DNA of 64,000 bases from Deltaproteobacteria bacterium RIFCSPHIGHO2_02_FULL_43_33 (GCA_001798165.1 MGRL01000007.1:455-64454); one strand, 5' to 3'; positions 3,769-40,020 are shown, counted from the stretch's first letter. The notes: a model not told the origin generated them from the sequence alone. Program-made: numbers and translations.

Positions 3769-4451
3769 ATGAAGAATATATTAAATAAGCTTACTATCGC
3801 CATAGCGCCGTTTTTGGCGTCATTGCTGATAAAATTTCTTGCCATCACTATGAGAATTTCATATGTCAATTTTGAAAAGATACGAGATGATTGGCAAAGC
3901 GGCAAGAATGTGATTATTGCCTTTTGGCACGGAAGGCTTTTAATGATGCCCATTATGTATAAAGGCAGCGGCATAAGCGTACTGGTAAGCCAGCACAAGG
4001 ATGGCGAGTTAATCGCAAGAACTGTAAAGATATTTAATATTGATTCTGTCAGAGGCTCTTCTACGAGGGGCTGGTTGGGCGGCGTAAAGGGGCTTTTAAA
4101 GGCTGTCAAAAGAGGTAAAGACATAGCCATAACGCCTGATGGCCCAAAAGGCCCAAAGTTTAATGTGCAGATGGGAATAATACATTTAGCAAAGCTGACA
4201 GACCTTCCGATAATACCCATGAGCTTCAGCGCCTCAAAAAAAAAACTTTTAAGAGTTGGGACGGGTTTATCATACCTTATCCATTCTCAGAAGGCGTGTT
4301 CATCTGCGGCGATATTATAACTATTAATCATGATGCAACTGACGATGAATTGGAGCAAAAGAGGGTGGCATTGCAAAAAAGCCTCATGGAAATTACAGAA
4401 AGGGCGGACAGTTATTTCGTTGGAGGTAAGAGGATTAAGGTTAGAGGATAA
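3769..4451 (+). CDS. DUF374-family protein (lysophospholipid acyltransferase-like domain often adjacent to kdtA), interrupted by an apparent frameshift at an A10 homopolymer (4236-4245).
   Basis: Frame 1 reads MKNILNKL...FWHGRLLMMP...ITPDGPKGPK...SFSASKKK. After the A10 tract the protein continues in frame 3 as TFKSWDGFIIPYPFSEGVFICGDIITINHDATDDELEQKRVALQKSLMEITERADSYF and ends at a TAA at 4449-4451. An A11 or A8 tract would give a single ORF of about 227 aa. Confidence 0.6.
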
Positions 4452-4585
4452 AGGCAAAAGAAGTTGGAGGCAGGAGGATAGAGGTTAGAGGCAAATGCTT
4501 TCGCCTCCATCCTCAAACCTCACACCTCTAACATGCTTCTAAGTTCTTGCCTCCGACCTCTACCCTTTAACCTCATTCTAAATTC
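4420..4585. repeat. Inverted heptamer arrays of AGGTTAG type and their complement, forming a roughly 160-bp imperfect palindrome between DUF374 and kdtA
   Basis: ggaggtaagaggattaaggttagaggataaagg...ttggaggcaggaggatagaggttagaggcaaatgctttcgcctccatcctcaaacctcacacctctaac...cctccgacctctaccctttaacctc. Confidence 0.7.
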
Positions 4586-4587
4586 TG

Positions 4588-5913
4588 ATGTATCTCCTCT
4601 ACGACATCCTTCTTCATCTTTCCCTTGTTCTCCTTCTGCCATATTTCCTTTTTAAGATGCTCTTTGTCGGCAAATACAGAAAGGGCATTTGGGAGAGATT
4701 TGGTTTTATAGGAGAAGAAAAACTAAAAAACCTTTTTGCCGGCTGTGCTGAGTGCCATGGGAAAAAAATTGTTTGGTTCCATGCAGTTTCTGTCGGCGAG
4801 ACCAAAGCTGTCCTGCCGCTTGTCAGGCTTTTAAAGGAAAAACATCCGGATAGAAAAGTTGTATTTTCTACAGTTACACCCACTGGTAATGCAGTTGCTG
4901 AGAAAGAAGGCTGCCAATGGATTGACAGTCTTATATATTTTCCCTTAGATTTTAACTGGGTTGTTAATAAGATTGTAAGGTTAATAAAACCCAGTGTCTT
5001 TGTAGTGGTAGAAAAAGAGATATGGCCGAACATATTGAGGGTTTTGAAAAAAGATAAAGTCCCTGTATTAATTGTAAATGGTGTAATATCAGACCGCTCT
5101 TTCGAAAGATATAAGCTGTTTGGTTTCTTCTTTATAAGAATCTTTAAGAATATATCTGCTTTTTTAAGCCAGACAAAAAAAGACAGCGATAAGGCAATAG
5201 CATTAGGAATAGAAGCGCAGAGGGTTATGCTAACCGGCAATATGAAGTTTGATATAACACCCCCTCTTTGGCATCTTTCTGAGAGAGAGGCTTTTATGCA
5301 AGGGCTTGGTATAAAGGATAGCGATAAAATAGTTGTTGCAGGAAGCACGCACGCAGGCGAGGAAGAGATTATATTAAATGTCTTTCAAAGGCTTAAGCAT
5401 GAGTTTCCGAATTTAAAATTAATACTTGCACCGCGGCATCCGGAGAGATTTAATGAAGTGGAGAAACTTGTCAGAGAGAAAGGACTTGCTGTTGTAAGAC
5501 GAACTGCTGTAACTCCCGCCTCCCGCCTCCAGCCCCCTGCCTCCCATGACGTAATCCTTCTGGATACTATCGGAGAGCTTTCCATGATATACAGTCTTGC
5601 CACAGCAGCCTTTGTCGGTGGGACTCTTGTAAATATCGGCGGGCATAATCTTATGGAGCCGGCGCTTTATAGGAAGCCAGTGATTTACGGTCCATCTATA
5701 AAGAGCTGTCTTGAAATGGCAGAGATGCTTGAATCTGCAGGCGGAGCTATACGGGTAAATAGCGAAGAAACATTATTTGAGAATATAAGAGAGTTGTTAT
5801 TGGATGAAACCTATAGGCAAAATATTGGCAATGCTGCATACAGCGTAGTGGAGGCCAATAAAGGGGCAACAGAGAAATGTTTGAGAGTTTTAGAAAGGTT
5901 AATGGTGGAATAA
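4588..5913 (+). CDS. kdtA: 3-deoxy-D-manno-octulosonic acid (Kdo) transferase
   Basis: 441 aa. Motifs FHAVSVGETKAVLPLVRLLKEKHPDRKVVFSTVTPTG and the C-terminal glycosyltransferase region GGHNLMEPA are typical of KdtA/WaaA. Residues TAVTPASRLQPPASH at 5515-5545 are encoded by a heptamer-like repeat. Confidence 0.9.
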   Translation: MYLLYDILLHLSLVLLLPYFLFKMLFVGKYRKGIWERFGFIGEEKLKNLFAGCAECHGKKIVWFHAVSVGETKAVLPLVRLLKEKHPDRKVVFSTVTPTGNAVAEKEGCQWIDSLIYFPLDFNWVVNKIVRLIKPSVFVVVEKEIWPNILRVLKKDKVPVLIVNGVISDRSFERYKLFGFFFIRIFKNISAFLSQTKKDSDKAIALGIEAQRVMLTGNMKFDITPPLWHLSEREAFMQGLGIKDSDKIVVAGSTHAGEEEIILNVFQRLKHEFPNLKLILAPRHPERFNEVEKLVREKGLAVVRRTAVTPASRLQPPASHDVILLDTIGELSMIYSLATAAFVGGTLVNIGGHNLMEPALYRKPVIYGPSIKSCLEMAEMLESAGGAIRVNSEETLFENIRELLLDETYRQNIGNAAYSVVEANKGATEKCLRVLERLMVE

Positions 5914-5947
5914 TATTTAAGGGTATGTTATAAAAAACGAAGCCACA

Positions 5948-6010
5948 AGATTCAAGATGCAAGTTCCAAGTTTTTACTTGCGGCTTATAACTTATAACTT
6001 GCGACTATAA
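5948..6010. repeat. Inverted heptamer arrays, (CAAGATT)n then (TAACTTG)n, between kdtA and secA
   Basis: caagattcaagatgcaagttccaagtttttacttgcggcttataacttataacttgcgactataa. Confidence 0.7.
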
Positions 6011-6033
6011 ATAGAGAGGGAGAATTTAAAATC

Positions 6034-8745: not shown

Positions 8746-8748
8746 TTT

Positions 8749-9960: not shown

Positions 9961-9963
9961 AGA

Positions 9964-12931: not shown

Positions 12932-13041
12932 AAAGTTAACCCCTCCCAGCCTCCCCTTTAGCAAAGGGAGGAAGCAAATCCCCCCTCTTTTGTAAAGAGG
13001 GGGTTAGGGGGAGTTAGAAAAGGGCAAGAGGAGTTAAACTT

Positions 13042-14400
13042 ATGAGAATCTTAATCATTGACGACGAAGAAGCCATGCGCCACATGCTTTCTATCATATT
13101 AAAAAAAGAAGGCTATGATGCAGTGTCAATAGAAGGCGGCCAACAGGCTATAAAAATATTGGAAAAGGAAGATTTTGACTTCATCCTCTGCGATATAAAA
13201 ATGCCTGGCATGGACGGCCTGGAGTTTTTAAAAAGCCTTCAGCCTTCAGCCTTCAGCCTTCAGCCTGTCGTCATCATGATGTCTGCCTACGGCGCCATTG
13301 ATACTGCTATTGAGTGCATGAAACTTGGCGCATACGACTATATCTCAAAACCGTTTAAGGCTGATGAGATATTGCTTACTTTAAAAAAGGCAGAGGAGCG
13401 GGAGAAACTTAGAAGGGAAAATATCAGGCTTAAAGAGGCTGTTCAAAATGAGTATGACTTCAAGAATATTATAGCAGAAAGCCGGCAAATGCTTGATATA
13501 TTTGGGCTTGTAAGAAAGGTGGCAGACTATAACACTACAGTGCTTATAACAGGGGAGAGTGGCACAGGAAAGGAGCTTATTGCAAGGGCTATCCATTACA
13601 ACGGAAGCAGAAAGGATAAATCCTTTATTGCGGTAAACTGCGGCGCAATACCGGCGCAGCTTCTTGAAAGCGAACTCTTCGGCCATGTTAAAGGCGCATT
13701 CACTGATGCGGTTAGGGACAAAAACGGCCTTTTCGAAGAGGCAGACGGAGGGACGATATTTTTAGACGAGATAGGCGAGCTTCCCAGAGAATTACAGGTA
13801 AAGCTGCTGAGGGTTATCCAGGAGGGAGAGCTGAGGCGTGTGGGTGATTCAAAATCAAGGAAGATAGATGTCAGGATTATTGCCGCAACTGCCAGAGACC
13901 TGACAGAGGAAATCAAAAAAGGCAACTTTAGAGAAGACCTTTTTTACAGGCTAAATGTTGTTCCTATAAAGATCCCTCCTTTGCGGGAAAGGCAAGATGA
14001 CATCCCGCTGCTATTAAAATTTTTTTTAGGCAAGTATGCAAAAAAGTTCGGCAAGACTATAAATGGCATACATGAACAAGCAATGAGCCGTCTGTTGAAT
14101 TATCCTTGGCCAGGCAATGTAAGAGAGCTTGAAAATGTTATAGAAAGGGCTGTGATATTGGCAGATGCTGATATGATAAAATCCGAAAATTTGCCGTTTT
14201 TACAAGCACAGCCTTCAGCCTTCAGCCTTCAGCCTTCAGCCAATACAGGACTTTCCATTAAAAAGGCAGAAGAATCCATTGAAAAAGAACTCATAAAAAA
14301 GGCGCTGGAAATGACCCGCGGCAACAAGACAAAGGCAGCAGAGCTTTTGGAGATAAGCCATAGGGCGCTTTTGTATAAGATAAAGGAATACGGGTTGTAG
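13042..14400 (+). CDS. Sigma54-dependent response regulator (NtrC/PilR family: REC, AAA+ activator and Fis-type HTH)
   Basis: The REC domain has DDEEAMRHML...DIKMPGMDG. Walker A is GESGTGKE, the GAFTDA motif is present (GAFTGA-type), and the C-terminal HTH is present. Two in-frame LQPSAFSLQP inserts come from (CCTTCAG)n arrays at 13236-13267 and 14211-14241. Confidence 0.9.
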   Translation: MRILIIDDEEAMRHMLSIILKKEGYDAVSIEGGQQAIKILEKEDFDFILCDIKMPGMDGLEFLKSLQPSAFSLQPVVIMMSAYGAIDTAIECMKLGAYDYISKPFKADEILLTLKKAEEREKLRRENIRLKEAVQNEYDFKNIIAESRQMLDIFGLVRKVADYNTTVLITGESGTGKELIARAIHYNGSRKDKSFIAVNCGAIPAQLLESELFGHVKGAFTDAVRDKNGLFEEADGGTIFLDEIGELPRELQVKLLRVIQEGELRRVGDSKSRKIDVRIIAATARDLTEEIKKGNFREDLFYRLNVVPIKIPPLRERQDDIPLLLKFFLGKYAKKFGKTINGIHEQAMSRLLNYPWPGNVRELENVIERAVILADADMIKSENLPFLQAQPSAFSLQPSANTGLSIKKAEESIEKELIKKALEMTRGNKTKAAELLEISHRALLYKIKEYGL

Positions 14401-15768: not shown

Positions 15769-15900
15769 AAAAGAAAGTAGACAACATGTAGTAGATATTA
15801 GACAGGGGAGAAATACAGTAGATAGTAGGAGAGTAGAAAGTAGGAAGGTGGAAAGTGTTTCCCTGTCTACCTCCTGCCGTCTACTATCTACTATTTTTTA
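15764..15900. repeat. Palindromic heptamer element A: (AGTAGAC-like)n ... GGAAAGTGTTTCCC ... (GTCTACT-like)n, followed by TTTTTT. Terminator-like.
   Basis: The left arm is gtagtagatattagacagg...gtagatagtaggagagtagaaagtagg. The right arm is cctgtctacctcctgccgtctactatctactatttttta. Confidence 0.7.
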
Positions 15901-16041: not shown

Positions 16042-16602
16042 ATGAATATAAAAGATGAAAGAGGTTTTTCTATGGTTGAGCTTTTGATTGTGGTTACCCT
16101 TGTTGCAATAGTGGCGGCAATTGCCATGATGGGGCGCGAGACTTATCAGGGACATCAGCTCAAAGCTGCCTCGCAGCAGCTTTACGGCGATTTGCAGAAG
16201 ATAAGAGTTGATGCAATGACTAAAAGCAGTGCGGCAAATAGCCGCGGTTTCGGAATACGGTTTACCTCAGGTTCGGCTTATACCGCTTTTGAGTTCAATG
16301 ATGCAGACAATAATTTTACTGATGCCGGAACAACAACAGAGGAGACGAATACCAGGAATATTACTTTGAGAAGCGGAATAACGGTTACATTGGGGGATAC
16401 CACAACTCCTCCGACCGGCACAGGCAATGTGTTGATATTCAGCAAGCAGGGGTTGCCTAAAGATAATACATGGGCGCAACTCAATAGAAATTATGTGATA
16501 CAGCTTTCAGGGGTTAACCAGATAAGGTGTGTCAATATAGCTAATGTCAGTATTAGGGAAGGGGTTTGGAATGCAGCGAGCTCAAGTTGCGCAATACAGT
16601 AG
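16042..16602 (+). CDS. Type IV pilus minor pilin, FimT/FimU (GspH-like) family, copy 2
   Basis: Leader MNIKDERG followed by FSMVELLIVVTLVAIVAAIA. Paralogous to the 15229 gene. Confidence 0.8.
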   Translation: MNIKDERGFSMVELLIVVTLVAIVAAIAMMGRETYQGHQLKAASQQLYGDLQKIRVDAMTKSSAANSRGFGIRFTSGSAYTAFEFNDADNNFTDAGTTTEETNTRNITLRSGITVTLGDTTTPPTGTGNVLIFSKQGLPKDNTWAQLNRNYVIQLSGVNQIRCVNIANVSIREGVWNAASSSCAIQ

Positions 16603-17185
16603 AAAAGAAAGTAGACAGTATGTAGTAGATAGTAGGAAGGGGGAAAGTGTTTCCCTGTCTACCATCTACTATCTGCCGTCTACCAATTCTGTCTACCGTC
16701 TACCGTCTACTCATAAGGGCTTTTCCCTCGTTGAGATGATGATAGCCTTATTCATCCTGACCGTTGCCGTGCTGGGGCTTTTAGAACTTACCATCACCTC
16801 CATCAGAACCAATCTACAGAATGATATGAGAAATACCTCCATAAGGCTTACCAGCCAGACAGCAGAGATACTCCTTGCCCAGCCCATTGACAGCGTAGCC
16901 ACATGCGGTTTGACCCCGGATTCAAGTACTGGCGCCATGAATTACAATTCATCTTACACATACACTACTGCGAACGCCTGTTTGTATGCCTCTGCCGATA
17001 CTGATGTTAAAAAGTATCCTAATCCAAGTCAGGCTATAAGAAGCGGCACGGTTAATTATAATATATACTGGTCGGTATTATCACCCACAAACGATATAAG
17101 GCAGATTACGATTACTGTTTCATATTTTTACCGCGGTCAGCAGTATTCAAACACGGCTGTAATATATAAGCACAGGGCAGTATGA
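16544..17185 (+). CDS. PilV-like type IV pilus minor pilin. The start is uncertain. The only in-frame ATGs (16544 and 16571) lie inside the preceding gene. They give a 50-59 aa pre-sequence translated from palindromic element B, placed before the mature N-terminus G|FSLVEMMIALFIL.
   Basis: The prepilin motif HKG|FSLVEMM is present and the mature length of about 160 aa is typical of PilV. Upstream in frame the translation reads ...YLPSTNSVYRLPST, encoded by the GTCTACC repeats. Confidence 0.65.
   Translation: MSVLGKGFGMQRAQVAQYSRKESRQYVVDSRKGESVSLSTIYYLPSTNSVYRLPSTHKGFSLVEMMIALFILTVAVLGLLELTITSIRTNLQNDMRNTSIRLTSQTAEILLAQPIDSVATCGLTPDSSTGAMNYNSSYTYTTANACLYASADTDVKKYPNPSQAIRSGTVNYNIYWSVLSPTNDIRQITITVSYFYRGQQYSNTAVIYKHRAV
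16597..16710. repeat. Palindromic heptamer element B, with the same core GGGAAAGTGTTTCCCTGTCTACC as element A
   Basis: The sequence is cagtagaaaagaaagtagacagtatgtagtagatagtagg...cctgtctaccatctactatctgccgtctaccaattctgtctaccgtctaccgtctact. Confidence 0.7.
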
Positions 17186-17188: not shown

Positions 17189-17432
17189 AAGAGTAGACAG
17201 CAAGAAAGACAGTAGAAAGTAGAAGAGGGAAAAATATGAGAAACAACAAAAAAGAAAGCAGACAGGGGAAAAAGACAGTAGACAGTAGGAGAGTAGACAG
17301 TAGGCAGGATAAAACAAAATCCAAGCCTTTCCTGTCTACCTTCTACCTTCTACCGTCTACTTTTAAAAAGTCTACCATCTACCATCTACCTTCTACCAAT
17401 TCTGTCTACCCTCTACCGTCTACTTATTATTA
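17189..17432. repeat. Palindromic heptamer element C. The left AGTAGAC arrays and right GTCTACC arrays are expanded. The pilW start codon lies inside it.
   Basis: Runs from gagtagacagcaagaaagacagtagaaagtag through ctgtctaccttctaccttctaccgtctact...tctaccatctaccatctaccttctaccaattctgtctaccctctaccgtctact. Confidence 0.7.
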
Positions 17433-18507
17433 CAGTGGTTTCAGTCTTGTTGAACTTCTTGTTGTGCTGGGCATATTTTCGGTGATACTTACCGTTGTCT
17501 TCAGCTCATATATTACGCAGTTAAAGCACACAGGCAGGGAATACAGGGTTGCGGAGACTGAGATAGAGATTGGAATAGCAAAGGGCATTATTGAGAGGGA
17601 TATTGCCATGGCAGGATATGGGATTGCAGAGGATTACGGTACCACAACATTCAATCCAAAGGTTGCAAGCGCCACGAATGACAATCCTGACACATTGACC
17701 CTGACAGGCACAGCCCTTGGCATGAAATCAAAGCAGGCCCAGGCATGGACATATATAAACGGCGGTAACCCGACATTTGGGCCGGCCTTAGTAGCAAACA
17801 CCAACGCAACATGGGGCGACTCAAGGGAGGATTTAAATACAGGCGACAGGGTCATCCTGATGGAACCCGGCACAAAGAAGCTGCTGCTACAGGGAACAGA
17901 ATGGCTGTTTGCAGTAACAGATGCTGACAGCGACGGTATTATTGATACCATCAAAAGCAGACCAAGTAATACAAACTATGCTACTCCAACTGTTGGAACA
18001 ATTGTATATGGTCTTTATGGCTCCAGCAATGCCTCTGACGACGCAGATGGCGCTCTCAAACCCTACTATGCTGTCAGGTATTATCTTGGCGGCACACCTC
18101 CGTCCAACTGTGCCTCTGGCACAAAGAGTCTGCTAAGGGCAGAGAGCACGAAAGACGCATCACCCAGCAACGGTGACCCCATCCTTGATTGCGTGCTGGA
18201 TCTGGAGGTTGCATTCGGCCTTGATACGGATGAGAACGGGACGATAGACGCAGACGCATGGGACAACGGCGGCGCGGCAGCGTCAGTCTATGACGCAGCC
18301 AGCCTCAGAAAAAGATTAAAGCAGATAAGGATGTATATCCTTGTCCAGTCAGGAAATTATGACGCGAATTACACCTATCCGCTTAACAGCGTCTTGGTCG
18401 GAGACAGCATCCTTAGCACAGGAAGAAATGTGGCTATTACAGGCGACCTGTTGAGATACAGGTGGAGGATGCTGGCGATAAACATAACACCGAGGAATAT
18501 AAGATAA
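17236..18507 (+). CDS. PilW-like type IV pilus minor pilin, with a roughly 70-aa N-terminal pre-sequence translated from palindromic element C ahead of the prepilin motif SG|FSLVELLVVLGIF
   Basis: A GAGGG ribosome-binding site lies 8 nt upstream of ATG 17236. The mature region of about 350 aa is typical of PilW. No alternative in-frame start exists nearer the pilin N-terminus. Confidence 0.7.
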   Translation: MRNNKKESRQGKKTVDSRRVDSRQDKTKSKPFLSTFYLLPSTFKKSTIYHLPSTNSVYPLPSTYYYSGFSLVELLVVLGIFSVILTVVFSSYITQLKHTGREYRVAETEIEIGIAKGIIERDIAMAGYGIAEDYGTTTFNPKVASATNDNPDTLTLTGTALGMKSKQAQAWTYINGGNPTFGPALVANTNATWGDSREDLNTGDRVILMEPGTKKLLLQGTEWLFAVTDADSDGIIDTIKSRPSNTNYATPTVGTIVYGLYGSSNASDDADGALKPYYAVRYYLGGTPPSNCASGTKSLLRAESTKDASPSNGDPILDCVLDLEVAFGLDTDENGTIDADAWDNGGAAASVYDAASLRKRLKQIRMYILVQSGNYDANYTYPLNSVLVGDSILSTGRNVAITGDLLRYRWRMLAINITPRNIR

Positions 18508-19120: not shown

Positions 19121-19404
19121 GATAATGTCTTCCCGAGGGTTTAATCGGGAATCGGATTTGCTTCAAGTAGGAAAACATATCCGTCCCCGAATGTATCTAT
19201 CGGGGATAGAAGAGTTCGGGGATGACAGCAGTGGGACGCAAAATCTCCCCTGACCCCTCTTTATCAAAGAGGGGAAAAAGAAGAGGGACTTTGTCAAAGA
19301 GGGGGAAATAATCTCCTCCTTTGGAAAAGTGGGATGAAGGGGGATTTTGAGCCAATGATTCGGTGGGCGTTGCTCGCCCTGCAAACAAATAGGAGGGTAC
19401 TTAT

Positions 19405-24087: not shown

Positions 24088-24088
24088 A

Positions 24089-24210
24089 AGTAGACGGTAG
24101 AAGATAGACTTTTTAAAAGTAGACAGTAGATAGTAGATAGGGAAAAACAAAAGATTTTCTTTCTACCCTCTACCTTCTACCGTCTACTTTCTACTCTCCT
24201 ACTGTCTACC
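24089..24210. repeat. Palindromic heptamer element D after pilY1
   Basis: Runs from agtagacggtagaagatagact...agtagacagtagatagtagatagg through ctttctaccctctaccttctaccgtctactttctactctcctactgtctacc. Confidence 0.7.
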
Positions 24211-24320
24211 GTATTTTCCCCTTTCCTTTCCCATGCTTTTATGCTACCTATTCCCCTATACTACACCCTTCGATAGGCTTAGGGTGACAATGTCATGGTG
24301 AGTTTGTCTAACCATCTTCT

Positions 24321-28801: not shown

Positions 28802-28805
28802 ATAT

Positions 28806-29444
28806 ATGAAGAATTTAGAATTCAGAACTCAGAATTCAGAAGCCATAAGCCAGAAGTCAGGAGTCAGGAGTCAGGTAGAAATGGCTATAGGCTGTAGGCT
28901 ATGGGCTATGGGTTTTACCCATTGCCTCCTCTTGCCTCTCGCCTCTTGCCTCTTGCTTCTTGCCGGTTGTCAGCAAGGCAATACGCCGCCTCAGCCTCAA
29001 CAAGCCCCTCCTGCTCAGGTAAAAAAAGAGCCGCTTCAGCAGGAAGCTGCGCCTCCTTCTGCTGAAGTAAAGGAGGAGAAGAAGGATGCTGTTGTTGAGA
29101 CAAGAAGGAGAAATCCTTTTAAATCATTTATTGTTAAAGCAACAGAACGTGCAGCGGTAATTGTGCCAAAAACGCCCTTGCAGAAATATGAAGTAGAACA
29201 GCTTAAGCTTGTGGCAATCATCTGGGGAATAAACAGTCCTATAGCTATGGTGGAGGCGCCAGACGGTAAGGGATATAAACTAAAAAAAGGCGACCTTATC
29301 GGAAACAGAGATGGAAAGGTAAAGCGAATTGAAAAAGACAGGGTGGTGGTAGAGGAGCAATCTACGGAAACCAGCGGGGAGATTCGGGTTAGTGAATTTG
29401 AAATAAAACTGCCATTGCCTGCAGGAGAGGAGGAAATACGATGA
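28806..29444 (+). CDS. pilP: Type IV pilus assembly lipoprotein PilP. The N-terminus, including signal peptide and lipobox LLAGC, is encoded by heptamer arrays. The start may be 28881 or 28908.
   Basis: The lipobox is LLLLAGCQQ. The C-terminal PilP beta-domain reads KLVAIIWGINSPIAMVEAPDGKGYKLKKGDLIG. Confidence 0.7.
   Translation: MKNLEFRTQNSEAISQKSGVRSQVEMAIGCRLWAMGFTHCLLLPLASCLLLLAGCQQGNTPPQPQQAPPAQVKKEPLQQEAAPPSAEVKEEKKDAVVETRRRNPFKSFIVKATERAAVIVPKTPLQKYEVEQLKLVAIIWGINSPIAMVEAPDGKGYKLKKGDLIGNRDGKVKRIEKDRVVVEEQSTETSGEIRVSEFEIKLPLPAGEEEIR
28815..28965 (+). repeat. About 150 bp of consecutive degenerate heptamer arrays (GAATTCA, GGAGTCA, TAGGCTA, TCTTGCC units) covering the pilP 5' end
   Basis: gaattcagaactcagaattcagaagccataagccagaagtcaggagtcaggagtcagg...ggctataggctgtaggctatgggctatggg...ttgcctcctcttgcctctcgcctcttgcctcttgcttcttgcc. 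Confidence 0.8.
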
Positions 29445-32224
29445 AAAAGATAATTACGAATTACGATTTACGAATTACGAATTTAAAATCTAAAATCGTA
29501 AATCGTAAATCTCAAATCAGTTTAATGCTTTCTGCTTTCTGCATACTGCTTACTGTCTTTTACGGCTGTGCAGTCCCAAAGCAAGAGATGAAAGGCGAAG
29601 GCGCAAAGGAAAAGGTAGCTATTGAGAAGATTACTGTTGTGGGAGAGGGCAATGAGGTGTTAATAGAGGCTTCTGGACCGATGATATATACTGCCTTCAA
29701 GCTTTCTGACCCAACCAGATTAGTTTTAGATATCCCAAACGTAAATATAGAAAAGGTAAGCGGCGCCAAGGAGATTAATAATAAGTTTATTACCACTATT
29801 ACTTCCGCCAGTTATGGGGAACAGACAATGCTGCCGATTGCCAGGGTGGAGATAGGGCTGAAAGACGACCTCAGCCATGAGATAAAATTAGGAGAAGGCA
29901 GTATTATGGTTAGTTTAAATTATGCAGCCATTCCTAAAAGTGAGGCGCCTATTGCAGGTGAAGCCCCTGCAGCAGATGCAGAAAAGGCGGCTTCTGAAGT
30001 TCCACCAGCAGCAGAAGAAGCTAAAACTGCCATCGCTGAAGTTGAAAAAAAGGAGGCAAAAAAGGCAGATAAATTACTCCGGATAGAAGCGAGGAAGGAG
30101 AGCGGCGTAACAATAATAAATGTTATTGGCAATGGCGTGATAGGCGATTATAATGCCTTTGCCATAGATAAACCGGCAAGGCTGGTTGTGGATATATGGA
30201 ATGTTAAAAGTTCAATTCAGAAGGCAAGTTTGAATATAAATAGCCGCCAGATAAAAAGGGCGCGGGTTGGTGAACATCCTGATAAGGTAAGGCTTGTGTT
30301 TGATTCCAATCAGAAAAAAATGCCTTCTTACACAATAGAAAGGATTGGCGAATCTCTGGTTATAACTGCCGGCAAAGTTAATATTGCAAAAGCTGAGATA
30401 GCGCCAGCTCCTCCTGTTGCCGCAGAGGCTGCCCCTTCTGAGCCTCCTCAACAGGTAGCAGAATTAAAGAAGGCAGAATATGCAGAGGTAAAAACAATTG
30501 ATTTTAAGCAATTATCAGATAAGGCAAGGCTTATTGTTGCTGCATCTAAGAAGGTAGAGTATAAGCTGTCTAAGTCAGCAGATGAAACCAACCTTGTATT
30601 GGATATCAAGGACGCTGTTATAGCTGATGAATTCAAGAGAACATTGGATGCCTCTGACCTGAATACCCCTGTGTCCACAATAAGCTCATTTCAGGTTCCT
30701 GTTAAATCGGCAAAGGATGTTCGTATTATCGTGAAGTTGAAAGAAAAGGCTGAATATGCTATTTCACAGGAAGAAGAAAAGATACAGATAGATTTTCCGC
30801 TTCTTGCGGTAGCAAAGACAGTTCCAAAAGAGGCGGAGATAAAGAGTCAGGAGTCAGGAGCCAGGAGTCAGGAGTCAAAAGAAGTAAAACCAACTGAAGA
30901 AGTTATTCAGAAAGAAGCGGAAGCCTATACAGGCCGCAAGATTTCCTTGGATTTCAAAGATGCTGATATAAGCAATATCTTAAGATTAATGGCAGAGATC
31001 AGTAATCTGAATATTATTGCAGGCGAGGATGTAAAGGGGAAGGTGTCGTTAAGATTAGTTGATGTTCCATGGGACCAGGCGTTTGACATTATATTGAAAA
31101 CAAACGGATTGGGTAAGGTGCAGGAAGGCAATGTGGTGAGAATTATGCCTCTTGCAAAGATAAAGCAAGAGAATGAGGAAGTCCTTGCATCAAGAAAGGC
31201 AAAGGAAAAATTGGAAGACCTTGAAATAAAATTATTTCCTGTGAGTTATGCAAAGGCAAGCGAGTTGGAACCGCAGGTTAAAGGTTTGCTGAGCGACAGA
31301 GGAACCGTTACAATTGAGAGCAGAACAAATACCCTTATTATTAAAGATATTCCTGCCAATATACAAAAGGCAGTTGATTTAATAACTCAGCTGGATACAC
31401 AGACGCCGCAGGTATTGATAGAGGCAAGAATTGTGGAGGCGCAAAGCAACTTTGCAAGAGACCTTGGAGTGCAATGGGGTGTAGCCCACGCTACGAGACG
31501 TAAAACACCAGAGGGAGATAGGTATATTAGCGAATTCGGCAGTACCAGTACTGCTCCGCCAAACACATTGAACCCCAGCGGTTTTGTTGGTTCAGGCGGG
31601 CAATTTTCTTCACAGCCTAATTATGCTGTAAGCCTTCCTGCCTCAGGTTCTGCCGGGCCATTGGGGGCATTGGGGTTTTCGTTTGGGAAGCTGACAGGCG
31701 ACCCATTGCTTTTAGACCTTCGCATATCTGCCGGCGAGAAGAATGGCTTGACAAAAACAATATCAAGGCCGAGGATTACCACCCTGGACAATAAAGAGGC
31801 TAAAATATCGCAGGGTGATTCTGTGCCGTTTGAAACAACATCTTCTTCCGGAACCCAGACGCAGTTTATTGATGCAACGCTTGAATTAACTGTCACACCA
31901 CACATAACTCCGGACGGCAGTATCAGTATGAAGATTAAGGCCAGCAGAAATTCCATTGGTTCTTTCAGGAGCGCTGCTGGAACGCCAAGTATAAGCAAAA
32001 AAGAGGCATCTACAGAGATAATTGTGAAAGATGGAGAAACCGCAGTTATCGGCGGCATTGTGATAGAGGATAAGAGCGATGCAACCAGCGGGATACCATT
32101 TTTTAAAGATATTCCCATCATAGGTTGGCTCTTTAAAAATAAATCAGTATCTAATTCTCAGACCGAGCTATTAATATTTATTACACCTAATATTGTGAAG
32201 GGCAAGGTGGAGATATCAAGTTAA
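29441..32224 (+). CDS. pilQ: Type IV pilus secretin PilQ (AMIN domains, N-domains and a secretin domain)
   Basis: AMIN domains follow a lipoprotein-like signal (LLTVFYGCA). The C-terminus is the secretin ...TELLIFITPNIV. The ATGA at 29441 overlaps the pilP stop. The first 28 aa are encoded by heptamer arrays (ATTACGA, TAAATCG) and the start could instead be 29525. An internal KSQESGARSQESKE is a heptamer insert. Confidence 0.9.
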   Translation: MKKIITNYDLRITNLKSKIVNRKSQISLMLSAFCILLTVFYGCAVPKQEMKGEGAKEKVAIEKITVVGEGNEVLIEASGPMIYTAFKLSDPTRLVLDIPNVNIEKVSGAKEINNKFITTITSASYGEQTMLPIARVEIGLKDDLSHEIKLGEGSIMVSLNYAAIPKSEAPIAGEAPAADAEKAASEVPPAAEEAKTAIAEVEKKEAKKADKLLRIEARKESGVTIINVIGNGVIGDYNAFAIDKPARLVVDIWNVKSSIQKASLNINSRQIKRARVGEHPDKVRLVFDSNQKKMPSYTIERIGESLVITAGKVNIAKAEIAPAPPVAAEAAPSEPPQQVAELKKAEYAEVKTIDFKQLSDKARLIVAASKKVEYKLSKSADETNLVLDIKDAVIADEFKRTLDASDLNTPVSTISSFQVPVKSAKDVRIIVKLKEKAEYAISQEEEKIQIDFPLLAVAKTVPKEAEIKSQESGARSQESKEVKPTEEVIQKEAEAYTGRKISLDFKDADISNILRLMAEISNLNIIAGEDVKGKVSLRLVDVPWDQAFDIILKTNGLGKVQEGNVVRIMPLAKIKQENEEVLASRKAKEKLEDLEIKLFPVSYAKASELEPQVKGLLSDRGTVTIESRTNTLIIKDIPANIQKAVDLITQLDTQTPQVLIEARIVEAQSNFARDLGVQWGVAHATRRKTPEGDRYISEFGSTSTAPPNTLNPSGFVGSGGQFSSQPNYAVSLPASGSAGPLGALGFSFGKLTGDPLLLDLRISAGEKNGLTKTISRPRITTLDNKEAKISQGDSVPFETTSSSGTQTQFIDATLELTVTPHITPDGSISMKIKASRNSIGSFRSAAGTPSISKKEASTEIIVKDGETAVIGGIVIEDKSDATSGIPFFKDIPIIGWLFKNKSVSNSQTELLIFITPNIVKGKVEISS

Positions 32225-32246: not shown

Positions 32247-32277
32247 CAAATGCACCCCAAGGGGTGCATTTTTTTTG
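32247..32277 (+). terminator. Rho-independent terminator after pilQ, formed by aaatgcacccc-aa-ggggtgcattt followed by TTTTTTT
   Basis: 11-bp stem, GC-rich, followed by a T8 run. Confidence 0.8.
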
Positions 32278-32311: not shown

Positions 32312-33562
32312 ATGTTGAGGTATTTGACATCAGGTGAATCGCATGGTAAGTGCCTTACAAGCATCATAGAAGGGGTGCCTGCGAATTTATACCTTAGCGA
32401 AAAAAATATAAATGAAGATTTGGCCCGCAGGCAAGTTGGTTATGGCCGCGGGGGGAGGATGTCAATTGAGAGGGATGAGGTGGAGATTACCTCGGGGCTG
32501 CGTTTTGGCAAGACCCTTGGTTCGCCCATTACGATGGTGATTAAGAACAGGGATTGGGAGAATTGGCAGGAAGTAATGCGTTCCGAGTTGCAAGTTCCGA
32601 GTTCCGAGTTTGGAACACGAAACACGCAACACGAAACACGGAACATGCCTGTAACCAGACCAAGACCAGGCCATGCTGATTTGGCAGGGACGTTAAAGTA
32701 TGGATATTACGACATACGAAATATCCTTGAGCGCTCAAGCGCAAGAGAAACTGCCGCGAGAGTAGCTGTTGGCGCTGTATGTAAGAGATTTCTTGATGAA
32801 TTTGGAATTAAGGTGATGAGTTGGGTGATTGGGATTGGGGAAGTCAGGTTGATTTCGGATTTCGGATTTGGGATTTCGGATTTAAAAACTATTTTTGAAA
32901 AGGCAGAGGCATCGGATGTTAGGTGCCCTGATAAAAAGATTTCAGAGAAGATGCGAAAAGCAATAGACATGGCAAGAAAAAACGGTGATAGTGTTGGTGG
33001 CATCTTTGAGGTTACTGTAGCAGGCATTCCGCCTGGGTTAGGCAGCCATGTCCAGTGGGATAGAAAGCTTGATGGCAATCTTGCAGGGGCGCTGATGAGC
33101 ATTCAGGCGATTAAGGGGGTTGAGGTGGGGGTAGGGTTTGAAGCGGCCGGTAGGTTTGGTTCAGAAGTGCATGATGAAATATTCTATAAAACGAGGCAAG
33201 AGGCAAGGGGCAAGGGGCAAGAAAACTGGCCGGTGGTACCGAGGTTCTATAGGAAGATAAATAATGCCGGAGGTATTGAAGGCGGCATGAGTAATGGCGA
33301 ACCAATTGTATTAAGGGCTGCCATGAAGCCTATCCCAACGCTTTACAAGCCACTAAGGTCAATAGATATTAAAACTAAAAAACCGTTTCAGGCAACTGTA
33401 GAAAGGTCTGACATATGCGCTGTACCTGCTGCTTCAGTGGTTGGCGAGGCAGTGGTTGCCTTTGAGATAGCCAATGTCTTTATAGAGAAGTTTGGCGGTG
33501 ACTCTATTAGCGAGATAAAGAGGAACTATCGGGGGTATTTGGAGTATTTGAGGAGGTTTTAA
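32312..33562 (+). CDS. aroC: Chorismate synthase
   Basis: Matches GESHG, PRPGHAD and [13 protein letters not shown]. Three in-frame heptamer-array insertions lie at 32581-32647, 32851-32883 and 33194-33222, which makes it 416 aa against about 360 typical. Confidence 0.9.
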
Positions 33563-33566
33563 TCAA

Positions 33567-33626
33567 GGCTATGGGCTATAGGCTATAGGAAGAACCTATT
33601 GCCCATTGCCTCTTGCCCATTGCCTG
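33567..33626. repeat. Inverted heptamer arrays, (GGCTATA)n then (TTGCCCA)n, between aroC and aroK
   Basis: ggctatgggctataggctataggaagaacctattgcccattgcctcttgcccattgcc. Confidence 0.7.
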
Positions 33627-33633
33627 TAGTTCT

Positions 33634-34134
33634 ATGAAAAACATCATCCTTACAGGCTTTATGGGGACCGGCAAGTCATCTGTTGGAAGACGCCTTGCGA
33701 GAGAATTAAATCTTAAATTTATAGATACCGATGATTTAATAGAAAAAGAGGCAGGGATACCTATAGCTCAAATTTTTAGTCAGTTTGGTGAGGCTTATTT
33801 TAGAAGGTTGGAATCGAAGGTGGTAAATAAGATATCTTCGGATACGGATGTTGTAATTAGTACAGGCGGCGGCGCTATTGTCAATCCTGAAAATCTTGAG
33901 GCATTGAAGAAAAGCGGGATTGTAATATGTCTTACTGCCTCAATTGATGCTATCCTTATAAGGATAGGCGAGGGAGATGAAAGACCGCTTGTCTCTCAGG
34001 GTGACAAGAGAGAGGTTATATCCAATCTGTTGCAGGTAAGAGAGCCCTTTTACAAAAAGGCAGATTTTATTATTGATACAACTACAAAGACTGTTGGCGA
34101 GGTAGTAAAGGAGATAAAGAAGATAGTGAGTTGA
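33634..34134 (+). CDS. aroK: Shikimate kinase
   Basis: MKNIILTGFMGTGKSSVGRRLA includes a P-loop. The six-frame ORF from 33613 adds 7 aa from a heptamer array. Confidence 0.9.
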   Translation: MKNIILTGFMGTGKSSVGRRLARELNLKFIDTDDLIEKEAGIPIAQIFSQFGEAYFRRLESKVVNKISSDTDVVISTGGGAIVNPENLEALKKSGIVICLTASIDAILIRIGEGDERPLVSQGDKREVISNLLQVREPFYKKADFIIDTTTKTVGEVVKEIKKIVS

Positions 34135-34195
34135 TATGGTAGTCTGCCGATTTATCGGCGCTTTTAAAAGACGCCCATAAATGGGCATACTACAT

Positions 34196-35290: not shown

Positions 35291-35376
35291 ATAAAGACAG
35301 ACACTTTTTAGCATGGTTTTGTTTGCCATAAGCGGCAGTAAAAGTTTAGTGTAATTATCCATGACATGCACTATTA

Positions 35377-36063: not shown

Positions 36064-36078
36064 ATAGGGAGTCGAGTT

Positions 36079-37143
36079 TTGGAAGTACGATTACACAGTC
36101 TTCAGAAAAGACTGTCTGCATGGAAGATAGATGCCTTACTTATTACCACACTGGAAAACACCCGCTATTTGAGTGGTTTTACAGGGAGCAGTGGGGCCGT
36201 TCTTCTAACCAGGAATAGCGCATTTTTTTTGACTGATTCAAGGTATGCTACACAGGCAAAATATGAGGTGCATGGGTTAAAGATTCGGGTATACAAAAGA
36301 CAGATTGAGGATATTGCATCTTTTATAAAAGGGATCAAGGCTAAGTGTATAGGCTTTGAGGCAAAAGGCATTACTTATGAAACATATCATAAACTAAAAA
36401 AAATATTGCCAGGCAAGAGATTAATTCCTGCCCCTGAAGATATTAATGCAATAAGATGCAATAAAGACAAAGACGAAATAAGCAAAATAAAAAAGGCAGC
36501 TTATCTTGCATCAGTTGGTTTTAGCGCTGCAATGGATTGTATATCTCCAGGCATTTCAGAATCCGAAGTAGCCCTTCGCATAGAAATGGCAATGAAAAGA
36601 AAGGGCGCTGAAGGCCTTTCTTTTGATATAATTGTTGCCTCTGGCGTAAGGGCAGCCCTTCCGCATGGTAAGGCCTCTCAGAAAAAGCTAAGAAGATCGG
36701 AGCTGATAATTGTAGACCTTGGCGCAAGGTTTAAAGGTTATAGTTCGGATGAGACATGTACATTTATTGTAGGTCAGCCGGATAAAAAACAAAAAAATAT
36801 TTATCATGCAGTAAAAGATGCCCATGATTTGGCAATAGAGGCTGTAAGGCCTGGGGTGAAGGCATCATATATAGATTCTGTGGCAAGAAGTTTTATTAAG
36901 GCTGCGGGATATGGTAAATATTTTGGTCATGGCACTGGTCATGGTGTTGGGCTTGCAGTCCATGAGTGGCCTAACATATCTCCTTATAATAATGCCACGA
37001 TAGAAGAGGGGATGGTATTTACCATAGAGCCTGGGATTTATATACCAGGATGGGGTGGAGTGAGGATTGAAGATATGGTTTTGGTTACGCGTGATGGTTG
37101 CGAGGTTTTAACAAGGATGTCTAAGGAGATGACAGCCTTATAA
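36079..37143 (+). CDS. M24-family Xaa-Pro aminopeptidase
   Basis: A creatinase N-domain is followed by the metal ligands HGTGHGVGLAVHEWP and EPGIY. Confidence 0.8.
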   Translation: MEVRLHSLQKRLSAWKIDALLITTLENTRYLSGFTGSSGAVLLTRNSAFFLTDSRYATQAKYEVHGLKIRVYKRQIEDIASFIKGIKAKCIGFEAKGITYETYHKLKKILPGKRLIPAPEDINAIRCNKDKDEISKIKKAAYLASVGFSAAMDCISPGISESEVALRIEMAMKRKGAEGLSFDIIVASGVRAALPHGKASQKKLRRSELIIVDLGARFKGYSSDETCTFIVGQPDKKQKNIYHAVKDAHDLAIEAVRPGVKASYIDSVARSFIKAAGYGKYFGHGTGHGVGLAVHEWPNISPYNNATIEEGMVFTIEPGIYIPGWGGVRIEDMVLVTRDGCEVLTRMSKEMTAL

Positions 37144-37215
37144 TTAAGAATTAGGAATTGCGAATTAGGAATTAAAAAATTGTAATTCGTAATTAGTAAT
37201 TCGTAATTGTTTTTT
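37141..37215. repeat. Inverted heptamer arrays, (GAATTAG)n then aaaaaa then (TAATTCG)n, followed by a T-run. Terminator-like.
   Basis: gaattaggaattgcgaattaggaattaaaaaattgtaattcgtaattagtaattcgtaattgtttttt. Confidence 0.7.
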
Positions 37216-37227
37216 CAGGAGGTTAAA

Positions 37228-37701: not shown

Positions 37702-37704
37702 AGG

Positions 37705-37822
37705 CAGGCTATAGGCAAGAGGCGATAGGCAATAGGAGGTTGGAGGTTAGAGGGTAGAGGCAAAAACCTCAAACCTCATACCTCCAACATTTTAAAATAG
37801 CCCATAGCCCATCGCCTTTTTT
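37705..37822. repeat. Nested inverted heptamer arrays between accB and accC that form a roughly 110-bp imperfect palindrome followed by a T-run
   Basis: ggctataggcaagaggcgataggcaataggaggttggaggttagagggtagaggc then aaaaa then cctcaaacctcatacctccaac...atagcccatagcccatcgcc then ttttttaaaa. Confidence 0.75.
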
Positions 37823-37829
37823 AAAATCT

Positions 37830-39164
37830 ATGTTCCATAAAATACTCATCGCAAATAGAGGCGAGATAGCAGTAAGAATTATACGGGCGTGCAAAGAGCT
37901 CGCTATCAAAACTGTTGCCGTATATTCTGATGCAGATAGAGAAAGCCTGCACGTTAAATTGGCTGACGAAGCTATCTGTATAGGTCCTGCAAAAAGTAAG
38001 GATAGCTATCTCAATGTCTCATCTATTATTAGCGCTGCGGAAGTGACGGATGCAGAGGCAATACATCCGGGATACGGTTTCCTTGCAGAGAATGCTGAAT
38101 TTGCAGAGATATGTGAAAATTGCGGCATTAAGTTTATAGGTCCCAGCTCCAACAGCATGCGGCTTATGGGAAACAAGATTCAGGCAAAGAAAGAAGTGGA
38201 AAGGCTGAAGGTCTCTGTTCTCCCATGGAGCAACGCAGGGATTAAGGATGAAAAAGATGCTGTAGATATTGCAAGGAGGATAGGATTTCCTGTAATCATA
38301 AAGGCTGCTGCCGGCGGCGGCGGGAGGGGTATGAAGCTTGTCCATACAGCGGCAAGTTTCGGCAATGCATTCCATACTGCTAAAAATGAAGCGCAGGCAG
38401 CGTTTGGAAATGGAGATGTATATATTGAAAAATATTGCGAGGCCCCAAGACACATAGAGATACAAATTATGGCTGATAAATATGGGAATGTCATTTATCT
38501 GGGTGAAAGAGATTGCTCTATTCAGCGTAGACATCAAAAAATATTGGAAGAGGCGCCGTCCCCTGTTTTAGATGAAAGATTGCGAAGGAGTATGGGTGAA
38601 TCTGCCATCAAGATAGCAAGGGCAATAAGCTACAGCAATGTCGGGACAGTGGAATTCCTCCTTGATAAGAATATGAGGTATTATTTTATGGAGATGAACA
38701 CAAGGGTTCAGGTTGAGCACCCTGTTACAGAGATGATAACAGGAATAGATATCATTAAGGAACAGGTAAGGCTTTCAACTGGCGAGAGAATGAGATTTAA
38801 ACAGAAGCATATCAGACTTAATGGCCATGCAATAGAATGCAGGATAAATGCCGAAGATCCTGTTACATTTGTGCCGTGTCCAGGCAAGATTACAAGCCTC
38901 CACATGCCTGGCGGCCCAGGGGTAAGGATTGATTCAGCCATATCCTGCGGTTACACAGTCCCTCCACACTATGATTCGCTGCTTGCTAAGCTTGTAGTGT
39001 ATGGGGAAAGCAGGGGCGAGGCTATTGCAAGGATGACAATGGCTTTGGATGAGATGGAGATAGAGGGGGTTAAGACCAATATCCCGCTGCACAGAAAAAT
39101 AATGAAAGACCATGATTTCATCAGAGGCAAGGTTGATATAAATTACTTGAGCAGATTTGCTTAA
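37830..39164 (+). CDS. accC: Biotin carboxylase subunit of acetyl-CoA carboxylase
   Basis: ATP-grasp domain. MFHKILIANRGEIAVRIIRACKELAI is a canonical AccC N-terminus. Confidence 0.95.
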   Translation: MFHKILIANRGEIAVRIIRACKELAIKTVAVYSDADRESLHVKLADEAICIGPAKSKDSYLNVSSIISAAEVTDAEAIHPGYGFLAENAEFAEICENCGIKFIGPSSNSMRLMGNKIQAKKEVERLKVSVLPWSNAGIKDEKDAVDIARRIGFPVIIKAAAGGGGRGMKLVHTAASFGNAFHTAKNEAQAAFGNGDVYIEKYCEAPRHIEIQIMADKYGNVIYLGERDCSIQRRHQKILEEAPSPVLDERLRRSMGESAIKIARAISYSNVGTVEFLLDKNMRYYFMEMNTRVQVEHPVTEMITGIDIIKEQVRLSTGERMRFKQKHIRLNGHAIECRINAEDPVTFVPCPGKITSLHMPGGPGVRIDSAISCGYTVPPHYDSLLAKLVVYGESRGEAIARMTMALDEMEIEGVKTNIPLHRKIMKDHDFIRGKVDINYLSRFA

Positions 39165-39227
39165 AGACAGGCGAAAGGTTTGAGGTTAGAGGCAGTTGCC
39201 TCCCTCCTCCAACCTCAAGCAATTTCC

Positions 39228-39974
39228 ATGAATGACTGGAGATTATTGATAGATGGGCCGAAAAGCGGCTATGAGAATATGGCAACCGATGAGGCTATCC
39301 TTCAATCCTGCAATGAAGGGCTTTCCCAGCCCACTCTCCGACTGTATGAATGGAACACTCCAACCCTTTCCATCGGCTGTTTTCAGAAGGCAGACACTAT
39401 AATTAAAACTTGTTTAGATGTTGGGATCCCTTTTGTCAGACGTATTACCGGCGGCAGGGCTGTCCTGCATAGCGACGAAATTACTTATTCAATAATTTGC
39501 AGCGAAGATGAGCCGTTGTTTGGCGAGGGTATCTCAGGCGCATACAGAATTATAAACACATGCTTGTTAGAGGCCTTAAAAGAGGCCGGAATTAATGCTG
39601 ATATGCACGCACCCTGCGCAAGGCCATATAGCCATAAAAGAAGCTCCTGCTTTCATTCCCCGTCTAAATATGAGATTATCGTAGATAATAAGAAATTAAT
39701 AGGAAGCGCCCAAAAAAGGCTGAGAAATGCATTTATTCAGCACGGTTCTATCTTGTTCGGGATAGACAAGGATATTATTCCAAAACTATTTGGTGGAGAA
39801 TCTTTGTCAAGAATGGCATGGGTCGGACTTTATAATGATATCACAAGGCATGATTTTAAAACTATATTGATAGATAAGATTGAAAAGGGGTTGAATATAA
39901 AATTAACTGTTGGTAATATAAATGGTAGTGAAAGACATTTAAAGCAATTACGAATTAAAAATTACGAATTATAA
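39228..39974 (+). CDS. Lipoate-protein ligase / octanoyltransferase family protein (BPL/LPL catalytic domain, LplA/LipM-like)
   Basis: RRITGGRAVLHSDEITYS...KLIGSAQKR matches the LplA catalytic-core motif. The C-terminal residues LRIKNYEL are encoded by a heptamer array. Confidence 0.7.
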   Translation: MNDWRLLIDGPKSGYENMATDEAILQSCNEGLSQPTLRLYEWNTPTLSIGCFQKADTIIKTCLDVGIPFVRRITGGRAVLHSDEITYSIICSEDEPLFGEGISGAYRIINTCLLEALKEAGINADMHAPCARPYSHKRSSCFHSPSKYEIIVDNKKLIGSAQKRLRNAFIQHGSILFGIDKDIIPKLFGGESLSRMAWVGLYNDITRHDFKTILIDKIEKGLNIKLTVGNINGSERHLKQLRIKNYEL

Positions 39975-40020
39975 ATTTTAATTCCTAATTCCTAATTTTT
40001 AATTCTTAATTGTATTTTTT
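39946..40020. repeat. Inverted heptamer arrays, (AATTACG)n then (CCTAATT)n, followed by a T-run
   Basis: caattacgaattaaaaattacgaattataaattttaattcctaattcctaatttttaattcttaattgtatttttt. Confidence 0.7.

Follow-up and report, generated by a model that had tools for sequence, protein, structure and literature searches.

Inverted pairs of heptanucleotide arrays form stable hairpins between the genes of an uncultured groundwater deltaproteobacterium

A 64,000-nt stretch of DNA from an uncultured groundwater deltaproteobacterium (hereafter the window) carries arrays of 7-nt units that, in its intergenic spacers, mostly stand as inverted pairs and fold into long imperfect hairpins. The periodicity, complementarity, thermodynamic stability, lineage specificity, placement, arm polarity and turnover of these elements are established by the observations below. 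We put at about 50% the probability that they are convergent heptanucleotide microsatellite pairs whose arms were amplified separately, and which are kept between coupled genes only when they fold on themselves, acting as intercistronic stem-loops. Up to ~57.7 kb almost every gene is on the + strand, separated from the next by a short spacer, and over positions 1-57700 this strand has strong positive GC skew and AT skew. Proteins of the window have exact copies on contigs of many Rifle-aquifer metagenomes and in the GenBank assemblies 'Deltaproteobacteria bacterium RIFCSPLOWO2_12_FULL_43_16' and 'GWA2_43_19' (GCA_003511005.1); three exact-protein look-ups and one cluster look-up supplied assemblies of the same organism from many samples. 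Three sister genomes served for comparison, L003 and L004 (AccC 87-88% identical to that of the window) and L005 (AccC 87%).

Arrays were detected by self-match at a lag of 7 nt over 21 nt, with a loose cut-off of at least 15/21 and a strict one of at least 16/21. The loose cut-off yields 48 period-7 arrays in the window and 0.1 in block shuffles, and each of the other periods from 3 to 15 (excluding 7 and 14) gives 1-6 arrays; Tandem Repeats Finder agrees, with dozens of period-7 rows. The units run head to tail in three or more copies, as in heptanucleotide simple-repeat arrays, and they are in excess both over chance and over the other repeat periods. At the strict cut-off there are 39 arrays in the window, a density of 6 per 10 kb, compared with ~12 in L003 and L004, 0.7 in L005, 0.20 in 77 Desulfuromonadales/Geobacter-like control loci (1.26 Mb) and 0.26 in 80 unrelated accB loci (0.31 Mb), the latter taken from a metagenome scan with AccB as homologues of at most 51% identity among the matches listed. 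In array density the window exceeds the control loci (1.6 Mb) ~25-50-fold. Compared by AccC, a single gene, L005 is nearer to L003 and L004 than the window is; the array-poor genome therefore seems to be nested among array-rich ones, which suggests that arrays were lost there. Heptamer arrays, often as inverted pairs, also recur in the accB-accC spacer of several more distant genomes, and one unrelated metagenome contig bears a CTGAGAG array of 12 units; these additional arrays come from L136 (49-135 and 1834-1933), L007 (9878-9962), L031 (9883-9987), L029, L036, L062 and L069.

The typical intergenic element consists of a G/purine-rich array, a short A/T loop and a roughly complementary C/pyrimidine-rich array, each arm usually having 4-5 units (30-34 nt). 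Most of the longest inverted repeats in the window with halves no more than 120 nt apart are such pairs (I1-I4, I6-I8, I10, I13 and I18). A preliminary description of the window had held that arrays between genes are nearly always paired; this is true of the strictly intergenic ones (~11/13), and it left unmentioned the many arrays at gene ends or inside open reading frames (ORFs). Folding energies were compared with those of 200 dinucleotide shuffles per element, and most elements form stable stem-loops with z-scores from -3.5 to -9.9. The extreme value belongs to the AATTACG/TAATTCC hairpin at 39943-40020 (-21.5 kcal/mol, z -9.88, 0/200 shuffles as good), followed by the AATTAGG/AATTCGT hairpin at 37141-37216 (-21.9 kcal/mol, z -6.58, 0/200). 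Among seven palindromes singled out in the preliminary description, which had named folding no better than that of shuffled controls as grounds for rejection, most fold far better than their shuffles, except those at 33567-33626 (8/200) and 5948-6010 (13/200). The first of these weak elements is the AGGCTAT/ATTGCCC pair of the aroC-aroK spacer (33561-33627, z -1.9 to -2.6; 33563-33633 refolds at -25.2 kcal/mol, z -1.92), which fills that spacer from stop codon to start codon with a systematic 2/7 mismatch between the consensus units of its arms; the second is the pair upstream of secA (5940-6012, -12.9 kcal/mol, z -1.68), with one CAAGATT-type and one CTTATAA-type arm.

Of 15 elements, 9 cover the upstream stop codon or begin no more than 5 nt from it, and five fill their spacer from stop to start. 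The 37141-37216 hairpin, for example, begins at the pepP stop codon and is followed by a run of six T (T6, 37210-37215) that precedes the accB ribosome-binding site; at 39943-40020 the upstream ORF runs through the left arm and stops in the loop, and only 3 nt separate the T6 at 40015-40020 from the start codon of the following gene. Automatic detection gave 15 pairs (from the window, L003, L004, L007, L031 and L069), in 14 of which the 5' arm has more G than C and the 3' arm more C than G, and none has the reverse. Because a palindrome reads alike on both strands, the G-rich arm is the first to be synthesised by any polymerase that copies the element. The polarity may reflect avoidance of exposed C-rich RNA that would be open to Rho loading, or a fold-back that needs a G-rich nascent strand.

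The internal structure of the elements bears on how the arms arose. Units within an arm are homogeneous (purity 0.85-0.95), but one arm's consensus unit departs from that of its partner at 1-2 of 7 positions, so that the mismatch recurs once per unit; this would be unexpected if one arm had been copied from the other, and is what separate amplification or homogenisation of the arms would give. Arm lengths are unequal in the elements at 16606, 17273 and 24087. The suggestion that the elements are built from local heptamer units and follow no fixed consensus is borne out on both counts. Separate elements share exact units in five pairs, against ~0.6 expected from a rough uniform-composition estimate, and all five pairs lie no more than 8 kb apart, while at least four unrelated unit families occur in the 64 kb. 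A limited unit repertoire was considered and set aside, since the 16 element pairs matching at no more than one mismatch compare with ~13 by a rough chance estimate and only exact matches are in excess.

Recurrence of the unit families could also be read as mobility: REPIN-like (repetitive extragenic palindromic, REP, doublets forming hairpins) or MITE-like (miniature inverted-repeat transposable element) families would be copied by a REP-associated tyrosine transposase (RAYT) or another single-strand transposase into hairpin loops or beside stop codons. GAGGTTA-type units are found at five loci (3697, 4420, 26485, 37733 and 39170) and AATTACG-type units at three (29445, 37141 and 39943), and the motif GAGGTTAGAGGCA has 17 matches against 1.7 expected. 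The clade also has a true REPIN-like palindrome of another, non-periodic kind at 34139-34193, with two inverted palindromic halves and GTAG...CTAC ends (GTAGTCTGCCGATTTATCGGCG ... CGCCCATAAATGGGCATACTAC); its sequence is conserved in L003, which has two copies (2158-2240 and, in reverse, ~3480-3580). Yet hairpins of one heptamer family resemble one another no more than unit type and layout predict when units are permuted within each arm (P 0.2-0.4). Whole-element homology was significant only against a null that scrambles both arms together, and we dropped it as evidence for transposition for that reason. Mobile families would likewise leave unexplained the internally homogenised arms of unequal length and the single arrays in frame inside genes; neither a terminal signature nor a target duplication was seen, and no RAYT-type or other transposase gene is present among the called genes of window positions ~3042-47143, the rest of the window being unchecked for RAYT. 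Two further points, the nesting at the accB-accC junction and the exchange of elements between sister genomes (both below), fit insertion, and on balance we consider copying by a transposase quite unlikely.

Pfam domains and the source names confirm the identities of accB, whose 157-aa product has a biotin-carrier domain, and accC, which encodes a biotin carboxylase of 444 aa, and the nested palindrome reported between them is real: at 37702-37822, an outer stem of AGGCNAT/ATNGCCC units encloses an inner stem of GGAGGTT/AACCTC units and is followed by T6 (37817-37822) and the accC ATG (37830), and the region 37702-37829 folds at -48.9 kcal/mol (z -5.56, 0/200). At this junction L005 has a 14-nt spacer, L004 the AGGCTAT-type hairpin alone, the window the same type of hairpin with the GGAGGTT-type hairpin in its loop, as if one had been inserted into the other, and L003 an unrelated ACAAATA-type hairpin. 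The pepP-accB junction has four different solutions in the four genomes; that of L005 is a Shine-Dalgarno-like run, AAGGTTAAGGTCAAGGTTGAGGAGG, by itself, and the same run forms the left arm of the hairpin in L003. Between accC and the lipoate-protein-ligase-like gene (lplA), L005 has a mini-hairpin, ACAGGT..ACCT, with whose bases the expanded stems of the other genomes also open; in the window this spacer is filled by a GAGGTTA-type hairpin (39170-39222; 39165-39227 refolds at -23.9 kcal/mol, z -2.83, 3/200). At the last two junctions, therefore, L003 and the window have expanded hairpins where L005 has only seed-like sequence.

Genes of L003 and L004 are ~89-93% identical, yet three of four junction elements cannot be aligned between them, whereas the fourth, a hairpin upstream of pepP (L003 4256-4370, L004 1331-1445), differs at 2 of 98 nt between flanking genes that are 88.6% identical. 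The elements are hence either near-constant or swapped outright. Among the compared assemblies of this organism, sequence through the arrays varies only by scaffold gaps (N runs) and by probable assembly artefacts in L088, which makes micro-evolution invisible; there are no copy-number differences among the independent assemblies compared, in which consensus calling could hide minor unit-number variants, nor in the arrays retained by L003 and L004.

These observations can be joined in a single account. The elements would be the intergenic face of a repeat-making process in this Rifle lineage (the RIFCSPLOWO2_12_FULL_43_16 / GWA2_43_19 type) that may turn any DNA free to vary, whether spacers, variable loops, linkers, termini or signal peptides, into 7-nt arrays. 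Their origin would lie in slipped-register duplication of 7-nt units, proceeding in each arm of a short seed hairpin by itself, or alternatively from a Shine-Dalgarno-like run; the mini-hairpin and the run AAGGTTAAGGTCAAGGTTGAGGAGG of L005 are candidate seeds for the expanded hairpins at the same junctions in L003 and the window. Between tightly linked, co-transcribed genes, an insertion would persist only if it folds on itself with the G-rich arm first, which would keep the stop codon and the next start codon adjacent at the foot of the stem and expose no C-rich single-stranded RNA. The surviving hairpins would then behave as REP-like intercistronic stem-loops and as barriers to 3' exonucleases; those bearing T6 would be leaky terminators at most, and the one between accB and accC would do no more than reduce accC relative to accB.

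Several findings weigh against this reading, the first of them against its proposed origin. Array lengths peak at 30-34 nt (4-4.7 units) instead of falling off geometrically, and the peaked size, the constant copy number and the complete replacement of elements at sister junctions fit episodic replacement better than continuous slippage. The peaked size, with all-or-nothing turnover at 90% identity, G-arm-first polarity and local sharing of exact units, leave room for another explanation that we hold only tentatively and at well below even odds: a dedicated, uncharacterised process, distinct from ordinary polymerase slippage, that writes ~30-nt blocks of 7-nt repeats copied from nearby arrays in either orientation, and that is switched off or purged in L005. 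Such a process would generate, genome-wide, both the intercistronic hairpins and low-complexity protein segments, including signal peptides and pilin leaders.

Other findings weigh against the proposed role in RNA. Selection on the sense RNA left no trace in the stability that depends on G-U pairs, since antisense strands fold as well or better in 10 of 13 elements. T6 follows directly on only four of the ~12-15 hairpins (ends at 15900, 37215, 37822 and 40020); three of these tracts had been noted before, two exactly and the one before accC one base off. A consensus terminator scan of the window flagged none of the heptamer hairpins. It did flag compact GC-rich terminators at genuine operon ends, those of pilQ and of a gene for a tetratricopeptide repeat (TPR) protein (32248-32271 and 41962-41980), and their separate existence marks the heptamer hairpins, with stems of 25-45 bp that are mismatched once per 7 nt and often AT-rich, as a different class. 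The four T6-bearing elements do resemble Rho-independent terminators in having a stem-loop followed by T6; unlike such terminators, the heptamer stems stand inside apparent operons and upstream of essential genes. Because accB and accC are essential and the spacers upstream of them are filled by hairpins, apparently leaving no room for promoters of their own, strong termination seems implausible there, and neither of the two hairpins is likely to be an efficient terminator.

The same evidence bears on whether the hairpins are purpose-built regulatory RNA, that is, intrinsic terminators or attenuators, or RNase III sites, that set cistron ratios such as an excess of AccB over AccC. Points in favour are the great stability of stems that start at stop codons, four of them with T6 immediately behind, the 98% conservation of one hairpin (upstream of pepP) between L003 and L004, and the hairpin with TTTT(C)GGAGA before accC in several relatives. 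The preliminary description had proposed the accB-accC palindrome as an attenuator or processing site. An attenuator at this position is possible, but one conserved across the order is unsupported. In addition to the 14-nt spacer of L005, where the hairpin is absent, the accB-accC spacer is at least 40 nt long in 64 of 80 related species, of which only nine reach z of -3 or below; seven of the related-species spacers have a 7-nt periodicity, against 0-1 for the other periods tested. The motif TTTAAAAYCT-ATG before accC is conserved in L005 without any hairpin, so that part of the accC T-run is older than the hairpin, and the run overlaps a motif that is kept where the hairpin is absent. As the stability also lacks a sense-strand bias, and as arrays occur in coding DNA, where roles of this kind would be senseless, we judge a dedicated regulatory function unlikely, though still to be reckoned with.

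The arrays inside genes are numerous. Placed by Pfam domains, in-frame arrays lie at the C-termini of lpxB and of the msbA-like ATP-binding cassette (ABC) transporter, between the domains of kdtA, in argJ (codons 1-12 and 245-256), in a histidine kinase and an NtrC-like activator, and in pilP, pilQ, purB, carB and aroC. The aroC arrays (+ strand, in frame) occupy three sites, 32577-32650 (two adjacent arrays), 32846-32891 and 33187-33226. An alignment with 14 homologues places each site in a different one of the three variable surface loops, the first of which exceeds that of the homologues by 11 residues. The L003 aroC (576-1221) has arrays at the identical three sites, made of units unrelated to those of the window. 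In the NtrC-like gene (region 13228-14248, + strand), two identical and perfect AGCCTTC x4.7 arrays of 33 nt (13234-13266 and 14209-14241) lie 975 bp apart in the same orientation; the receiver domain holds one of them, and the linker that precedes the helix-turn-helix domain holds the other. Five successive arrays make up the 5' end of pilP (28804-28973, + strand, Pfam PilP), and at the 5' end of pilQ an AATTACG/AAATCGT inverted pair (29445-29520) is followed in frame by a TGCTTTC array (29445-29559 as a whole, + strand, z -5.1). The hydrophobic cores of the lipoprotein-type signal peptides of PilP (…LLLPLASCLLLLAGC) and PilQ (…LSAFCILLTVFYGC) are encoded by a CCTCTTG array (28928-28964) and the TGCTTTC array (29526-29560), respectively.

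Arrays at the 5' ends of pilP, pilQ, minor-pilin-like genes and argJ raise the possibility of phase-variation (contingency) loci, in which gain or loss of a 7-nt unit would switch genes, especially those of the type IV pilus; heptanucleotide repeats are reported to drive the phase variation of E. coli neuO and H. influenzae hmw. Against this stand the identity of all compared assemblies through the arrays, scaffold gaps aside, and the arrays in aroC, carB and purB, where switching would be lethal, and the intergenic pairs would be left unexplained. We regard phase variation as very improbable.

Features of this kind have been seen before in Geobacter and Xanthomonas, where they were left without an explanation. 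Geobacter metallireducens, of the related broader lineage, has eight opposite-strand pairs of 5 x MTYCTGA, one of them between the co-transcribed proB and proA, 24 pairs of 4 x an octamer, 21 pairs of 3 x TCTCCGTS, and 49 elements of 4 x GGACCGG within and between genes; these sites were guessed to bind nucleoid proteins (Aklujkar et al., 2009; PMC2700814). The elements described here resemble those paired sites and the 'H4' heptanucleotide elements in their 4-5-unit arrays and opposite-strand pairs: the same unit stands on opposite strands, close by and between genes. They differ in having many unit types where each G. metallireducens class has one consensus, in being far denser, and in carrying unrelated units at orthologous sites of sister genomes. 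If the arrays served at the DNA level as sites bound by a nucleoid or global regulatory protein of the integration host factor (IHF)/HU type, this would suit their characteristic size of 30-34 bp and the opposite-strand pairs, which G. metallireducens classes 1-3 also show. Numerous arrays are located within genes, however, and because the units differ widely across loci and between orthologous sites a sequence-specific binding protein is improbable; we consider binding of this kind very unlikely.

In Xanthomonas, GGGAATC arrays are 89-93% intergenic, lie just behind ORFs, form 70-75 convergent pairs able to make stem-loops, have few coding copies, and keep their position between species while length and sequence vary (Rehm et al., 2015; PMC4692102). 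The over-represented heptamers, the location close behind the upstream ORF and the convergent stem-loop pairs are common to both systems; unlike the elements of the window, those of Xanthomonas have one dominant G-rich unit with G-quadruplex potential, in a GC-rich genome. The TAACTGA repeats of Beggiatoaceae are direct repeats just upstream of start codons, with one inverted case (MacGregor, 2015; PMC4679880). They and the cyanobacterial tandem heptamers are, like our arrays, short and lineage-specific (2-6 copies there, mostly intergenic), although TAACTGA arrays have a single unit and do not form hairpins. Both reports summarise a 2007 survey as finding a general excess of heptanucleotide simple repeats in prokaryotes, and polymerase slippage has been proposed as the source of tandem heptanucleotide repeats (PMC4679880; PMC4692102).

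The preliminary description had likened the elements to REP sequences and bacterial interspersed mosaic elements (BIMEs), and in part the likeness holds: they are extragenic-looking, stable, imperfect palindromes of 50-160 nt between co-directional genes, some nested or clustered, with a REP-like location and probable behaviour as stem-loops in mRNA. Unlike REP, BIME and REPIN sequences, they have an internal 7-nt periodicity and no genome-wide consensus, as seen from the number of unit families, the unrelated units at orthologous junctions and a similarity no greater than unit-level expectation. Nor are they confined to extragenic DNA, given the in-frame arrays in aroC, carB, purB, argJ, kdtA, the NtrC-like gene and pilP/pilQ. 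What sets the present case apart from its precedents is its density, the diversity of its units, the invasion of housekeeping proteins and the strict polarity of the arms.

If convergent microsatellite pairs are indeed what these elements are, long intercistronic stem-loops of the sort that annotation would label as terminators, attenuators or REP elements may be by-products of a lineage-specific repeat bias, with selection deciding only which geometries survive, and caution would be due in reading function into them. The same process would reshape proteins, through the loops of housekeeping enzymes and through signal and leader peptides, and so be a source of low-complexity variation. The array-rich genomes and the array-poor L005 then offer a natural experiment on the long-noted excess of bacterial 7-nt repeats; the 2007 survey that noted it is reportedly by Mrazek et al.

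The remaining hairpins of the window are as follows. An asymmetric hairpin at the junction of the msbA-like ABC-transporter gene and a DUF374 gene (3697-3756, -17.9 kcal/mol, z -3.5) has a left arm of (GGTTAGA/GGTTGGA)x4, inside which lies the TAG stop codon of the upstream gene, and a right arm of TGCCTCAAACC. The msbA-like gene is flanked by mutually complementary arrays 1.8 kb apart, (AACCTCC)n at its start (1884-1932) and (GGTTAGA/GGTTGGA)n at its end (3697-3735). A nested double palindrome of GAGGTTA-type units at 4420-4585 (-66.4 kcal/mol, z -5.5) has no T-run and ends 2 nt before the kdtA start codon. Four hairpins belong to an AGTAGAN/NTCTACT family: one after a pilin-like gene (15811-15900, -35.4 kcal/mol, z -5.14), ending in T6 at 15895-15900; one at 16606-16716 (z -4.3), which has extra unpaired TCTACCN units on its 3' side and is in frame throughout with the downstream pilin-like ORF; one inside the long ORF of a PilW-like gene (17273-17423, z -5.8), with ~5 units in the left arm and ~13 in the right; and one that starts at the stop codon of a PilY1-like gene of 1560 aa (24087-24212, z -3.9). 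In two minor-pilin-like genes (ORFs 16544-17185 and 17236-18507; leader regions 16544-16740 and 17236-17440) every in-frame start codon 5' of the prepilin motif G|FSLVE precedes the hairpin, so that the whole palindrome would be translated as a leader of 57 or 66 residues. A TAG-to-TAT change and an 8-nt unit placed right at the would-be stop codon preserve the open frames of these leaders.

Where a gene starts right after a hairpin, as do accC (37822-37830), the lplA-like gene (39222-39228), aroK (33627-33634) and kdtA (4585-4588), no recognisable Shine-Dalgarno sequence precedes it; accB, pilQ and the ORF at 18521 have strong ones. In phage T4 gene 38, a hairpin places a Shine-Dalgarno sequence from further upstream beside the start codon. 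A mechanism of this type was rejected for aroC-aroK, where the single-stranded distances total ~18 nt, which is too long.

An Rfam scan of the whole window gave one tRNA, at 43631-43701, as its sole match. A separate family of short GC-rich palindromes, CCCCTCTTTnnCAAAGAGGGG or CCCCTCCC..GGGAGGGG, forms intergenic clusters at 12951-13003, 19254-19305 and 44555-44665, which fold strongly (z -4 to -6.3) and are free of 7-nt periodicity.

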